A DNA stretch of 11,451 nucleotides. Source: a virus (taxonomy: Duplodnaviria > Heunggongvirae > Uroviricota > Caudoviricetes). Where the stretch lies: IMG/VR virus record IMGVR_UViG_2690316318_000003; one strand, written 5' to 3'. Position numbers and translations under genes: made by a program. Shown here one piece after another: positions 7,041 to 10,424 of the stretch (the stretch's first letter is position 1; each line of letters starts with the position of its first letter). The notes under the pieces are model-generated. The model worked only from the letters and a program-made list of their open reading frames with translations. It had not been told where the DNA came from and did no database searches.

Positions 7041-7463
7041 ATGTTTCTGAAAACCGAATCATTTGAACATAACGGCGTGACCGTCACGCTTTCTGAACTG
7101 TCAGCCCTGCAGCGCATTGAGCATCTCGCCCTGATGAAACGGCAGGCAGAACAGGCGGAGTCAGACAGTAACCGGAAGTTTACTGTGGAAGACGTCATCA
7201 GAACCGGCGCTTTTGTGGTGGCGATGTCCCTGTGGCATAACCATCCGAAGAAAACGCAGATGCCGTCCATGAATGAAGCCGTTAAACAGATTGAGCAGGA
7301 AGTGCTCACCACCTGGCCCACAGAGGCGATTTCTCATGCTGAAAACGTGGTGTACCGGCTGTCCGGTATGTATGAGTTTGTGGTGAATGATGCCCCTGAA
7401 CAGGCAGAGGACGCCGGGCCTGCAGAGCCTGTTTCTGCGGGAAAGTGTTCGACGGTGAGCTGA
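7041..7463 (+). CDS. G: tail assembly chaperone gpG (140 aa)
   Basis: ORF 7041..7463, 140 aa, immediately upstream of the tape measure gene with a slippery site near its 3' end. Confidence 0.92.
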   Translation: MFLKTESFEHNGVTVTLSELSALQRIEHLALMKRQAEQAESDSNRKFTVEDVIRTGAFVVAMSLWHNHPKKTQMPSMNEAVKQIEQEVLTTWPTEAISHAENVVYRLSGMYEFVVNDAPEQAEDAGPAEPVSAGKCSTVS

Positions 7464-7870
7464 GTTTTGCCCTGAAACTGGCGCGTGAGATGGGGCGACC
7501 CGACTGGCGTGCCATGCTTGCCGGGATGTCATCCACGGAGTATGCCGACTGGCACCGCTTTTACAGTACCCATTATTTTCATGATGTTCTGCTGGATCTG
7601 CACTTTTCCGGGCTGACGTACACCGTGTTCAGCCTGTTTTTCAGCGATCCGGATATGCATCCGCTGGATTTCAGTCTGCTGAACCGGCGCGAGGCTGACG
7701 AAGAGCCTGAAGATGATGTGCTGATGCAGAAAGCGGCAGGGCTTGCCGGAGGTGTTCGTTTTGGTCCGGACGGGAATGAAGTTATCCCCGCTTCTCCGGA
7801 CATGACGGAGGATGACGCAATGCTGATGACAGTATCAGAAGGGATCGCAGGAGGAGTCCGGTATGGCTGA
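7041..7870 (+). CDS. T: tail assembly chaperone gpGT fusion made by -1 frameshift (join 7041..7445, 7445..7870)
   Basis: G frame to the slippery heptamer, then -1 frame ORF 7445..7870 (VFDGELSFALKLAREMGRPDWRAMLAGMSSTEYADWHRFY...); conserved chaperone-frameshift arrangement upstream of tape measure genes. Confidence 0.8.
7439..7445 (+). other. programmed -1 ribosomal frameshift slippery heptamer G GGA AAG
   Basis: Read directly: GGGAAAG at 7439-7445 in G frame as G-GGA-AAG; shifting -1 (GGG AAA G) enters the 7445..7870 reading frame, which has no plausible independent start/RBS. Confidence 0.85.
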
Positions 7871-10424
7871 ACCGGTAGGCGATCTGGTCGTTGATTTAAG
7901 TCTGGATGCAGCCAGATTTGACGAGCAGATGGCCAGAGTCAGGCGTCATTTTTCCGGTACGGAAAGTGATGCGAAAAAAACAGCGGCAGTTGTTGAGCAG
8001 TCGATGAACCGACAGGCGCTGGCTGCACAGAAAGCTGGTATCTCTGTAGGGCAGTATAAAGCTGCCATGCGTATGCTTCCTGCACAGTTCACCGACGTGG
8101 CCACGCAGCTTGCAGGGGGGCAGAACCCGTTTCTCATCCTGCTGCAACAGGGCGGCCAGGTAAAAGATTCCTTCGGTGGGTTGATCCCCATGTTCAGGGG
8201 GCTTGCCGGTGCAGTCACCCTGCCGATGGTGGGGCTCACTTCGCTGGCAGTTGCCACCGGAGCGCTGGCGTATGCCTGGTATCAGGGGGATTCAACCCTG
8301 TCCAGTTTCAATAAAACGCTGGTCCTTTCCGGTAATCAGGCAGGACTGACGGCAGATCGTATGCTGGCCCTGTCCAGAGCCGGGCAGGCGGCAGGGCTGA
8401 CGTTTAACCAGACCAGCGAGTCACTGACGGCGCTGGTGAATGCCGGTGTGCGTGGTGGTGAGCAGTTTGAGGCGATCAGCCAGAGTGTGGCGCGTTTCTC
8501 CTCTGCATCGGGCGTGGAGGTGGACAAGGTTGCTGAAGCCTTCGGGAAGCTGACCACAGACCCGACGTCGGGGCTGACAGCGATGGCGCGCCAGTTCCAT
8601 AACGTGACAGCGGAGCAGATTGCGTATGTTGCTCAGTTGCAGCGTTCCGGCGATGAAGCCGGGGCATTGCAGGCGGCGAACGAGGCCGCAACGAAAGGGT
8701 TTGATGACCAGACCCGCCGCCTGAAAGATAACATGGGCACGCTGGAGACCTGGGCAGACAAGACAGCACGGGCATTTAAATCCATGTGGGATGCGGTGCT
8801 GGATATTGGTCGTCCTGATACCGTGCAGGAGATGCTGATTAAGGCAGAGGCTGCGTTTAAGAAAGCAGACGACATCTGGAATCTGCGCAAGGATGATTAT
8901 TTTGTTAACGATGAAGCACGGGCGCGTTACTGGGATGATCGTGAAAAGGCCCGTCTTGCGCTTGAAGCCGCCCGAAAGAAGGCTGAACAGCAGAGTCAAC
9001 AGGACAAAAATGCGCAGCAGCAGAGCGATACCGAAGCGTCACGGCTGAAATATACCGAAGAGGCGCAGAAGGCTTACGAACGTCTGCAGACTCCGCTGGA
9101 GAAATATACCGCCCGTCAGGAAGAACTGAACAAGGCACTGAAAGACGGAAAAATCCTGCAGGCAGATTACAACACGCTGATGGCGGCAGCGAAAAAGGAT
9201 TATGAAGCGACGCTGAAAAAGCCAAAGCAGTCCGGCGTGAAGGTGTCTGCAGGCGATCGCCAGGAAGACAGTGCTCATGCTGCCCTGCTGACGCTTCAGG
9301 CAGAACTCCGGACGCTGGAGAAGCATGCCGGAGCGAATGAGAAAATCAGCCAGCAGCGCCGGGATTTGTGGAAGGCGGAGAGTCAGTTCGCTGTACTGGA
9401 GGAAGCGGCACAACGTCGCCAGCTGTCCGCACAGGAGAAATCCCTGCTGGCGCATAAAGACGAGACGCTGGAGTACAAACGCCAGCTGGCGGCACTTGGC
9501 GACAAGGTGACGTATCAGGAGCGTCTGAATGCGCTGGCGCAGCAGGCGGATAAATTCGCACAGCAACAACGGGCAAAACGGGCCGCCATTGATGCGAAAA
9601 GCCGGGGGCTGACAGACCGGCAGGCAGCGCGGGAAGCCACTGAACAGCGCCTGAAGGAACAGTATGGCGATAATACGCTGGCGCTGAATAACGTCCTGTC
9701 AGAACAGAAAAAGACCTGGGCGGCTGAAGACCAGCTTAACGGGAGCTGGATGGCTGGCCTGAAGTCCGGCTGGAGCGAGTGGAAAGAGAGTGCCACGGAC
9801 AGTATGTCGCAGGTTAAAAGTGCTGCCACGCAGACCTTTGATGGTATTGCGCAGAATATGGCGGCGATGCTGACCGGCAGTGAGCAGAACTGGCGCAGCT
9901 TCACCCGTTCCGTGCTGTCCATGATGACAGAAATTCTGCTAAAGCAGGCAATGGTGGGGATTGTCGGGAGTATCGGCAGCGCCATTGGCGGAGCTGTTGG
10001 TGGTGGCGCATCAGCGTCAGGCGGTACAGCCATTCAGGCAGCTGCGGCGAAATTCCATTTTGCGACCGGAGGATTTACGGGGACCGGCGGCAAATATGAG
10101 CCAGCGGGGATTGTTCACCGTGGTGAATTTGTCTTCACGAAGGAGGCAACCAGCCGGATTGGCGTGGGAAATCTCTACCGGCTGATGCGCGGCTATGCCA
10201 CCGGTGGTTATGTCGGTACACCGGGCAGTCTGGCGGACAGCCGGTCGCAGGCGTCCGGGAAGTTTGAGCAGAATAACCATGTGGTGATTAACAACGACGG
10301 TACGAATGGTCTGCCAGGGCCACAGGCGCTGAAGGCTGTTTATGACGTAGCCCGTAAGGCAGCAATGGATGTTGTGACCGGGCAGATGCGCGATGGTGGT
10401 CTGTTCTCCGGAGGTGGGCGATGA
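7863..10424 (+). CDS. H: tail tape measure protein gpH (853 aa)
   Basis: ORF 7863..10424, 853 aa as in lambda gpH; start ATG 7863 overlaps the T-frame stop (7868-7870); hydrophobic segment near the N-terminus, long Ala/Gln/Lys/Glu-rich coiled-coil-like centre, Gly-rich C-terminal part. Confidence 0.93.
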   Translation: MAEPVGDLVVDLSLDAARFDEQMARVRRHFSGTESDAKKTAAVVEQSMNRQALAAQKAGISVGQYKAAMRMLPAQFTDVATQLAGGQNPFLILLQQGGQVKDSFGGLIPMFRGLAGAVTLPMVGLTSLAVATGALAYAWYQGDSTLSSFNKTLVLSGNQAGLTADRMLALSRAGQAAGLTFNQTSESLTALVNAGVRGGEQFEAISQSVARFSSASGVEVDKVAEAFGKLTTDPTSGLTAMARQFHNVTAEQIAYVAQLQRSGDEAGALQAANEAATKGFDDQTRRLKDNMGTLETWADKTARAFKSMWDAVLDIGRPDTVQEMLIKAEAAFKKADDIWNLRKDDYFVNDEARARYWDDREKARLALEAARKKAEQQSQQDKNAQQQSDTEASRLKYTEEAQKAYERLQTPLEKYTARQEELNKALKDGKILQADYNTLMAAAKKDYEATLKKPKQSGVKVSAGDRQEDSAHAALLTLQAELRTLEKHAGANEKISQQRRDLWKAESQFAVLEEAAQRRQLSAQEKSLLAHKDETLEYKRQLAALGDKVTYQERLNALAQQADKFAQQQRAKRAAIDAKSRGLTDRQAAREATEQRLKEQYGDNTLALNNVLSEQKKTWAAEDQLNGSWMAGLKSGWSEWKESATDSMSQVKSAATQTFDGIAQNMAAMLTGSEQNWRSFTRSVLSMMTEILLKQAMVGIVGSIGSAIGGAVGGGASASGGTAIQAAAAKFHFATGGFTGTGGKYEPAGIVHRGEFVFTKEATSRIGVGNLYRLMRGYATGGYVGTPGSLADSRSQASGKFEQNNHVVINNDGTNGLPGPQALKAVYDVARKAAMDVVTGQMRDGGLFSGGGR

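Follow-up and report, generated by a model that had tools for sequence, protein, structure and literature searches.

Does the hydrophobic segment near the N-terminus of a lambda-like tape measure protein (TMP) serve only tail assembly, or does it also enter a host membrane when DNA is injected? We addressed this question in an 11,451-nucleotide stretch of DNA from a virus of the Caudoviricetes (IMG/VR record IMGVR_UViG_2690316318_000003; the window), in which gene H (7863..10424, + strand) encodes an 853-amino-acid tail tape measure protein, an ortholog of lambda gpH. Residues 1–853 of H aligned collinearly and over their full length with residues 1–853 of lambda gpH (PDB 8iyk_H), and the order G-T-H-M-L is kept, with G, T, M, and L open reading frames flanking H. 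The lambda reference protein (NC_001416) and H are 95% identical in amino acids over all 853 residues, and nucleotide identity is ~95% to lambdoid phages and Escherichia coli prophages. About 70% of complete E. coli genomes carry the gene. H carries the Pfam module TMP_2 (PF06791; residues 54–256, 8022..8630, + strand; E = 5e-70; 235.8 bits versus a gathering cut-off of 30.2), which holds the hydrophobic segment, and Tape_meas_lam_C (PF09718; residues 627–701; 74.5 bits versus a cut-off of 23). Genes G and T (7041..7870, + strand) encode the tail assembly chaperones gpG and gpGT (Phage_TAC_2, E = 2.4e-59; Phage_tail_T, E = 1.1e-14), and a −1 slippery heptamer, GGGAAAG, lies at 7439–7445. A sequence-only reading of the window had called H a tape measure protein beside the G/G-T chaperones, and the four Pfam families and the slip site bear this out.

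The same reading had placed one long hydrophobic stretch at H residues 104–140. The stretch is real, as the peptide FGGLIPMFRGLAGAVTLPMVGLTSLAVATGALAYAWY is found in the 853-residue frame, and its start at 8172 was correct, but the end given (8283) is one base too long, residues 104–140 corresponding to 8172..8282. Its description as a single stretch holds for residues ~122–140, which are kept apolar, but not for residues 104–106, which belong to a polar/Gly motif, nor for position 112, which is mostly basic. These patterns come from a panel of 95 homologs (<50% identity, within Pfam TMP_2) obtained by an exhaustive search of representatives; a word-indexed search gave little beyond close E. 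coli fragments, so that the exhaustive search was needed for diversity. The N-terminal 276 residues of H matched 4,447 representatives (50% clustering) at E ≤ 1e-3.

Residues 104–140 are a composite of the end of a motif, an amphipathic, Pro-terminated piece, and an apolar helix. The motif, QQGGQVKDSFGG (QQGGQxKDxFGG; residues 95–106, 8145..8180, + strand), is near-invariant, with Q95, Q96, G97, G98, Q99, D102, F104, G105, and G106 each 96%–99% conserved across the panel, and its last three residues, FGG (104–106), are the first three of the hydrophobic segment. It is followed by a short amphipathic helix, LIPMFRGLAGAVTLP (residues 107–121, 8181..8225, + strand), with a conserved basic residue (R112) and a terminal conserved proline. 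Among the 95 homologs, column 112 is basic/charged in 79%, column 120 is proline in 64%, and column 122 is charged in 25%. The hydrophobic moment of this piece is 1.01 (versus 0.22 for residues 122–140), and residues 107–121 are not TM-like across the family. The remaining part, MVGLTSLAVATGALAYAWY (residues 122–140, 8226..8282, + strand), delimited by conservation and the Hessa scale, is a conserved apolar helix that is rich in Ala and Gly and capped by aromatic residues. It is the TM-like core of the segment and corresponds to the published prediction for lambda gpH 116–140.

Within the panel, columns 125–139 contained 0% charged and ~0% polar residues, and Ala/Gly made up 60%–94% at most columns of 124–138. 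The aromatic cap (Y137/W139/Y140) is followed by Q141 and E145, positions that are polar or charged in 69%–85% of homologs. Polar-free runs had a median of 18 residues, and the maximum Kyte-Doolittle value over 19 residues (KD19) had a median of 1.74, reaching at least 1.6 in 73%; a Hessa sum ≤0 was reached by 0 of the 95. Entropy was 2.18 bits in the columns of the apolar helix versus 0.93 in the flanking motif. Since columns 125–139 are free of charge while the sequence itself varies, selection acts on apolar composition, the usual pattern for helices that face lipid or pack tightly. We also looked for heptad or helical (100°) periodicity of bulky versus small residues in columns 123–140, but the periodogram had no clear peak near 100° and was strongest at 160–180°, driven by the alternating A-Y-A-W-Y end; we therefore make no claim of a coiled coil or glycine zipper.

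The hydrophobicity of the segment in H is marginal. KD19 peaked at 1.68 (residues 113–131; conventional threshold 1.6), the best 19-residue Hessa window (central-position scale, simplified sum) gave +3.2 kcal/mol (residues 122–140), the Wimley-White octanol value was −3.3 (residues 107–125), and GES gave −1.82. The Hessa and Wimley-White values follow the published scales and are supported by the expected behavior of holin and spanin controls. As genuine TM helices, those of the Bas14 holins and i-spanin scored KD 2.0–2.4 and Hessa −0.4 to +1.5, whereas in the other 14 proteins encoded by the window no segment was above KD 1.53 or below Hessa +5.0; the segment of H lies between the two groups, short of the controls on KD19 and on the simplified Hessa scale. 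The hydropathy check proposed with the sequence-only reading put KD above the threshold of 1.6, and both KD and Hessa short of real TM helices. Peak height was dropped as a significance test for KD, Hessa, and Wimley-White, as 12%–42% of shuffles of this Ala/Leu/Gly-rich protein match it (KD, 17%; Hessa, 12%; by GES, 2.4%), and run length and conservation were therefore used instead. The run of 28 residues (113–140) with no D, E, K, R, H, N, or Q had P~0.001 in shuffles of H. With 28 apolar residues in H, and ~15–18 in the family core, the segment attains the length that spans a bilayer (~18–20 apolar residues or more).

H contains a second, Gly-rich hydrophobic stretch at residues 683–724 (9909..10034, + strand; KD19 1.53), at the end of Tape_meas_lam_C and near the gpH-to-gpH* cleavage region. 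It includes a 29-residue polar-free run (696–724), and none of 20,000 shuffles of H held a pair of such runs. Of the 95 homologs, 55 have another polar-free run (≥17 residues) at ~85% of their length, and a weaker TM prediction for gpH 691–712 has been published (PMC12617516). The first description of the rest of H as highly charged is thus right in part only, as H is 24% D/E/K/R, but this second stretch contradicts it.

PDB entries 8IYK/8IYL/8K35, 9E7M, and 9L9P hold complete TMP sequences, of which the models cover just the last ~30–36 residues at the C-terminus (gpH 818–849; T1 gp38 921–956), so that the segment is covered by no solved structure. The AlphaFold2 (AF2) monomer model has a helix at 107–116, a coil at 117–124, and a long helix at 125–156, with pLDDT <50 for residues 115–135, so that the model does not bury the helix with confidence inside a monomer. 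Downstream, residues 160–300 (8340..8762, + strand; the remainder of TMP_2 and an extension) are predicted to form an all-helical domain, with pLDDT about 87–98 in blocks across 161–290. A Foldseek search of the model against the PDB found no neighbor at E <0.2, only generic helical-repeat matches.

The feature and both of its proposed roles (chaperone and membrane) are already published for Ur-lambda, TP901-1, and T5. In lambda, gpH 116–140 was named a potential TM domain by Yu et al. (Sci Adv 2025, working on Ur-lambda), although it was called by some TM predictors only (PMC12617516). The published description of a hydrophobic, possibly TM segment agrees with the values measured in H, where only M107L, I118V, and A125L differ from lambda within residues 104–140; the window is a lambdoid variant, in which A125L makes H slightly more hydrophobic. 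[quoted passage not shown] A part in a membrane channel, which the sequence-only reading had also raised, is the leading published hypothesis for the segment; the conservation, the low AF2 confidence, and the sites of SNIPE escape fit it, while hydrophobicity below that of real TM helices does not.

We somewhat favor the reading that residues 122–140 are a latent membrane-insertion helix that anchors the gpH* conduit in a host membrane. The helix is too weakly hydrophobic for constitutive anchoring in a membrane of the producing cell, and so would stay soluble, held by protein-protein packing. Its packing partners would be first the gpG/gpGT coat and then, within the tail lumen, a bundle of six gpH* copies. 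Upon receptor-triggered ejection, the six copies of the helix would insert into the host membrane, where they may anchor one end of the trans-envelope DNA conduit formed by gpH*. We infer both that residues 122–140 themselves insert and that the membrane concerned is the inner one.

The choice of membrane draws on work with phage Bas14 and the nuclease SNIPE. TurboID-ManZ labels gpH during injection, the Bas14 TMP is crosslinked by SNIPE carrying N250pBPA, a position within its cytoplasmic DUF4041 domain, and SNIPE escape in this TMP arises by Q100P, A105E, V117D, and deletion or duplication of residues 144–150 (PMC13190303). The Bas14 TMP is collinear with H (28% identity over 680 amino acids, E = 6e-53; TMP_2 and Tape_meas_lam_C), and the alignment is ungapped with an offset of +25. 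The sites map to H Q75, A80, I92, and 119–125 (TLPMVGL), the last aligning with the 7-residue deletion/duplication and lying inside the hydrophobic segment. Because the sites fall in and just upstream of the helix and the crosslinking SNIPE domain is cytoplasmic, the mapping hints at an inner-membrane rather than an outer-membrane location, in contrast to the outer membrane suggested for the N-terminal third in Ur-lambda. The escape mutations could, however, act allosterically rather than mark a contact site, and the position of the indel may reflect mutational opportunity. Selection for one heptad as the basis of the 7-residue indel was weakened as an explanation, as CTCG/GGCC microhomology on either side of the 21-bp unit means that slippage can account for its position.

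T1 gp38 (PDB 9L9P_B) and the TMP of Bas14/TheodorHerzl (Dhillonvirus) have TMP_2 and Tape_meas_lam_C as in H, together with a QQ(G/L)xQ...FGG motif and, at the matching place in the alignment, an apolar helix, although identity is 28%–40% and their module starts between 25 and ~170 residues later in the protein. With KD 1.94 and Hessa +1.4, inside the range of the real TM controls, and a polar-free run of 28 residues (138–165), the helix of Bas14 exceeds that of H in hydrophobicity; genetic data on this region (SNIPE escape) come from Bas14 rather than lambda. As escape mutations align to H Q75, A80, I92, and 119–125, recognition of the TMP_2 module by DUF4041 is suggested. A tentative extension, which we regard as possible but short of probable, is that the module forms the end of the conduit at the inner membrane, with conserved helices 62–103 (QQGGQxKDxFGG) in the cytoplasm, residues 122–140 spanning the membrane, and SNIPE DUF4041 recognizing the module. 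This inner-membrane reading would reverse the tentative Ur-lambda orientation, and what SNIPE recognizes in siphovirus TMPs would be this conserved module.

The main competitor to membrane insertion is that the apolar helix is a packing or oligomerization surface, in the cytoplasm and the tail lumen, that never enters a membrane; candidates are a gpG/gpGT binding site, a six-helix gpH bundle, and a contact with the head-proximal tube or terminator. Marginal hydrophobicity in H and in every homolog (Hessa minimum >0 in 100%) is what this account expects, a richness in small residues suits close helix-helix packing, and an AlphaFold3 hexamer of gpH 1–319 is tube-like without a membrane (PMC12617516). 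On the chaperone shielding raised by the sequence-only reading, published work shows gpG coating gpH, but at multiple regions, with 104–140 not singled out (PMC5009743). Genetic data come from TP901-1: its otherwise helical, repeat-rich TMP has two hydrophobic regions, of which the first is essential and its deletion shortens tails, and Mahony et al. (2016), who proposed both chaperone binding and membrane insertion, considered chaperone recruitment or assembly the more likely role (PMC5099701). This phage differs from the one studied here in its Gram-positive host, its unrelated TMP family, and its three predicted TM spans per region in mid-protein (390–460, 591–679). An exclusively structural role also sits poorly with the aromatic cap and the polar/charged residues after it, which resemble a membrane-interface signature, with the demonstrated exit of gpH* from the tail to span the envelope (PMC12617516), and with Bas14 SNIPE-escape mutations that affect an inner-membrane event yet leave the phage viable. 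We consider this account plausible but rather unlikely.

Two further explanations fare worse. The stretch might be hydrophobic as the interior of a folded globular TMP_2 domain, given that it lies inside this Pfam domain and that residues 160–300 downstream fold confidently as a helical domain. Against this, the model gives low confidence around residues 115–135 and makes the helix an N-terminal extension of the long helix 125–156, composition rather than specific residues is kept (the entropy contrast noted above), unlike in the usual core helix, and Bas14 tolerates ±7-residue indels; we judge a buried core improbable. A chance fluctuation of composition without specific function in a protein rich in Ala, Leu, and Gly could explain the peak heights so often matched by shuffles, but hardly so long a polar-free run, nor its presence at the same alignment position in 95 homologs, and this explanation, to which we give next to no credence, is effectively refuted by the conservation analysis.

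Insertion of hydrophobic TMP segments has been proposed in other systems. In T5, the TMP pb2 is cleaved and ejected, and hydrophobic helices of pb2* are proposed to insert and form a DNA channel in the host membrane (PMC10038345). By published description, pb2* has 46 hydrophobic residues in two helices near the C-terminal end by the tail tip, in three copies and modeled in the outer membrane, whereas H has a single helix in an N-terminal module and gpH* six copies. Residues 104–140 thus lack the helix pair of ~46 residues by a C-terminal cleavage site, and the positional analog of the pb2 helices in H is the second stretch (683–724). For the F-type pyocin PyoF5, puncture of the inner membrane by its ejected TMP has been proposed (PMC12874032); PyoF5 delivers no DNA, and its likeness to H lies in the lambda-like non-contractile tail and the proposed role.

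How siphophage DNA passes the inner membrane is still an open question, lambda included, and within gpH, residues 122–140 are the best candidate for an element that spans a membrane. Knowing which membrane this helix enters would settle how the gpH* conduit is oriented, and would also account for the ManYZ dependence and for the way in which the SNIPE nuclease finds incoming DNA.

The window has the gene order W-B-C/Nu3-D-E-Fi-FII-Z-U-V-G-T-H-M-L, a lambda-type morphogenesis block, in which the H ORF (7863..10424) encodes an 853-aa tape measure protein (TMP) that aligns over its full length with lambda gpH (PDB 8iyk_H) and is 95% identical to H of NC_001416. It carries the Pfam domains TMP_2 (PF06791, residues 54–256, E=5e-70) and Tape_meas_lam_C (PF09718, residues 627–701). 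The H gene shares ~95% DNA identity with many lambdoid phages and has homologs in 3,735 of 5,426 complete E. coli genomes; the number of places per genome had a median of two and a maximum of eight, and 36 places were on plasmids. Only two records were ≥99% identical to it, and the exact allele is thus uncommon. Divergence from lambda gpH is ~27% in the C-terminal 37 residues (817–853; 10311–10421), where 10 positions differ (817, 818, 821, 829, 833, 835 and 837–840), versus ~5% over the whole of H. As the gpH C-terminal region is the part resolved by cryo-EM, where it contacts gpI, the window's phage may have a co-varying gpI (gene I lies outside the window).

The sequence-only reading described a membrane-like hydrophobic segment in H, and the peptide it quoted is exactly residues 104–140, starting at 8172 as reported and ending one base earlier, at 8282 rather than 8283. 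The segment is indeed hydrophobic, with a Kyte-Doolittle maximum over 19 residues (KD19) of 1.68 at residues 113–131, a 19-residue Hessa central-scale sum of +3.2 kcal/mol at 122–140, a Wimley-White octanol value of −3.3 at 107–125 and a GES value of −1.82 at 117–136. The Hessa and Wimley-White values follow the published scales, and controls gave the expected results. Since Ala, Leu, Gly and Val are abundant in H, 12–42% of shuffled H sequences peaked as high on the Kyte-Doolittle, Hessa and Wimley-White scales, but only 2.4% on GES. What is unusual is the length of the polar-free run, 28 residues (113–140) lacking D/E/K/R/H/N/Q (P ~0.001 by shuffling). The hydropathy check gave a split result: the segment lies above the 14 other window proteins (KD19 maximum ≤1.53, Hessa sum ≥+5.0) but below real transmembrane controls (holins and i-spanin of phage Bas14; KD19 2.0 to 2.4, Hessa −0.4 to +1.5), and hence between soluble and membrane proteins. 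The description of H as otherwise highly charged needs qualification for a second hydrophobic, Gly-rich stretch, SVLSMMTEILLKQAMVGIVGSIGSAIGGAVGGGASASGGTAI (9909–10034, residues 683–724; polar-free run 696–724, KD19 1.53), which lies where Tape_meas_lam_C ends, near the region of gpH-to-gpH* cleavage. Two such runs in one protein appeared in 0 of 20,000 shuffles of H, and 55 of the 95 divergent homologs examined have a comparable second run at ~85% of their length.

Searched exhaustively, H residues 1–276 matched 4,447 cluster representatives (E ≤1e-3). The 95 homologs, each <50% identical to H, were aligned with phmmer, and in this alignment the segment divides into three parts. Residues 104–106 (FGG) end the motif QQGGQVKDSFGG (QQGGQxKDxFGG; 8145–8180, residues 95–106), which is more strongly conserved than any other element of the TMP_2 module, with key residues each 96–99% conserved; the literature consulted assigns it no function. 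Residues 107–121 form a short amphipathic piece (position 112 basic in 79%, position 120 Pro in 64%), and 25% of the homologs have a charged residue at 122. Residues 122–140 form a conserved apolar helix, in which columns 125–139 are 0% charged and essentially 0% polar, small residues (Ala/Gly/Ser/Thr) make up 60–94% at most positions and bulky ones fall mainly at 125, 128, 132 and 135; an aromatic cap (137, 139, 140) precedes polar or charged positions 141 and 145. Entropy is ~2.2 bits here versus 0.9 for the motif, indicating that composition rather than identity is conserved. Among the homologs, the median KD19 maximum was 1.74 (≥1.6 in 73%), the median Hessa minimum +3.2 (≤0 in none) and the median polar-free run 18. 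The module's distance from the N-terminus varies, with the helix starting at residue 72–436 (median 19% of protein length).

No experimental structure covers residues 104–140; only gpH 818–849 and T1 gp38 921–956 have been modeled. An AF2 monomer of residues 1–320 (51-sequence alignment, mean pLDDT 74.9) predicted a confident all-helical domain at 160–300 (8340–8762; pLDDT ~87–98), for which Foldseek found no structural neighbor in the PDB; the whole model matched only generic helical repeats (E >0.2, best E=0.24). The C-terminal edge of this domain is the site of lambda A304V, which bypasses ManYZ (PMC13190303). In the model, pLDDT is <50 at 115–135 and the apolar helix begins a long helix (125–156), and so it is not confidently buried in the monomeric fold.

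Escape mutations in the homologous TMP of phage Bas14 align in and near the segment. The TMP of Bas14 (TheodorHerzl, MZ501107; 880 aa, TMP_2 81–282, Tape_meas_lam_C 665–731) is collinear with H (28% identity over 680 residues, E=6e-53), and H 48–167 matches Bas14 73–192 ungapped (offset +25; anchors FGG and NKTLxLSGN). Bas14 mutants escaping the defense nuclease SNIPE all map within TMP residues 100–150: Q100P, A105E, V117D, and deletion or duplication of 144–150 (PMC13190303). By alignment, the last (GPVGIGL) corresponds to H 119–125 (TLPMVGL), within the segment, and Bas14 remains viable with these ±7-residue changes. The substitutions correspond to H Q75 (an invariant column), A80 and I92, in two helices just upstream of the motif. 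The Bas14 apolar run (138–165; 28 residues, KD 1.94, Hessa +1.4) matches the i-spanin control in hydrophobicity. CTCG/GGCC microhomologies flank the 21-bp unit (Bas14 genome 11952–11972; …TTCCTCGGCCCAGTAGGGATCGGCCTCGCC…), consistent with an origin of both 144–150 alleles by replication slippage. Neither "hydrophobic" nor "membrane-spanning" occurs in the accessible portion of the SNIPE study's text (Nature 2026, PMC13190303).

The hydrophobic segment itself is already published for lambda, and the gene that carries it is very common: some, not all, transmembrane predictors favor gpH 116–140, and 691–712 much less confidently (PMC12617516, Ur-lambda). Both interpretations attached to it, chaperone shielding during assembly and membrane channel formation during DNA injection, are likewise existing hypotheses. 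As to the former, the G and T chaperone genes do adjoin H, as the two ORFs upstream (Pfam), with the canonical G/GT −1 slippery heptamer GGGAAAG (7439–7445) toward the end of G; at 7863–7870 (ATGGCTGA) the start codon of H and the stop of the T frame overlap, as in lambda. Multiple gpH regions are bound by gpG (PMC5009743), and of two genetically dissected hydrophobic regions in the TP901-1 TMP, the first essential and the second dispensable, chaperone recruitment was favored by the authors over membrane insertion (PMC5099701). As to the latter, six copies of gpH* (cleaved gpH) are present and make up at least a major part of the trans-envelope channel seen by cryo-ET, and AF3 hexamers of gpH 1–319 and 320–691 are tube-like (PMC12617516); older work cited there showed that gpH* acquires full protease resistance in LamB proteoliposomes. 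In T5 pb2*, 46 hydrophobic residues are modeled as two transmembrane helices entering the outer membrane (PMC10038345), for which the positional analogue is H 683–724, and puncture of the inner membrane has been proposed for the TMPs of F-type pyocins (PMC12874032).

On balance, we lean toward a role for the segment in the gpH* conduit, as a latent helix that inserts into a membrane. A packing or chaperone element serving assembly only, which the gpG and TP901-1 results would suit, appears a less probable but serious alternative. That the helix is buried in the core of a globular domain seems improbable, given the monomer model, and chance composition, a negligible prospect despite the ordinary peak height, is excluded by conservation across homologs.

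If the segment does insert, we somewhat favor the inner membrane over the outer, in which the gpH N-terminal segment has been tentatively placed in a scheme "by no means intended to be definitive" (PMC12617516). TurboID-ManZ labeled gpH during injection, the DUF4041 and nuclease domains of SNIPE are cytoplasmic, and pBPA at SNIPE N250 crosslinked to the Bas14 TMP (PMC13190303). Should the escape sites mark contact with the cytoplasmic SNIPE domain, the N-terminal module would lie at the inner membrane and the helix would cross there; SNIPE escape could instead be allosteric, and the position of the 21-bp indel may owe to the microhomologies on either side of it. A304V, together with the divergent region 300–400 of PhiR68.2 (PMC13190303), also ties the N-terminal half to inner-membrane events. 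The orientation question on which the segment touches is testable with existing public proteomics data.
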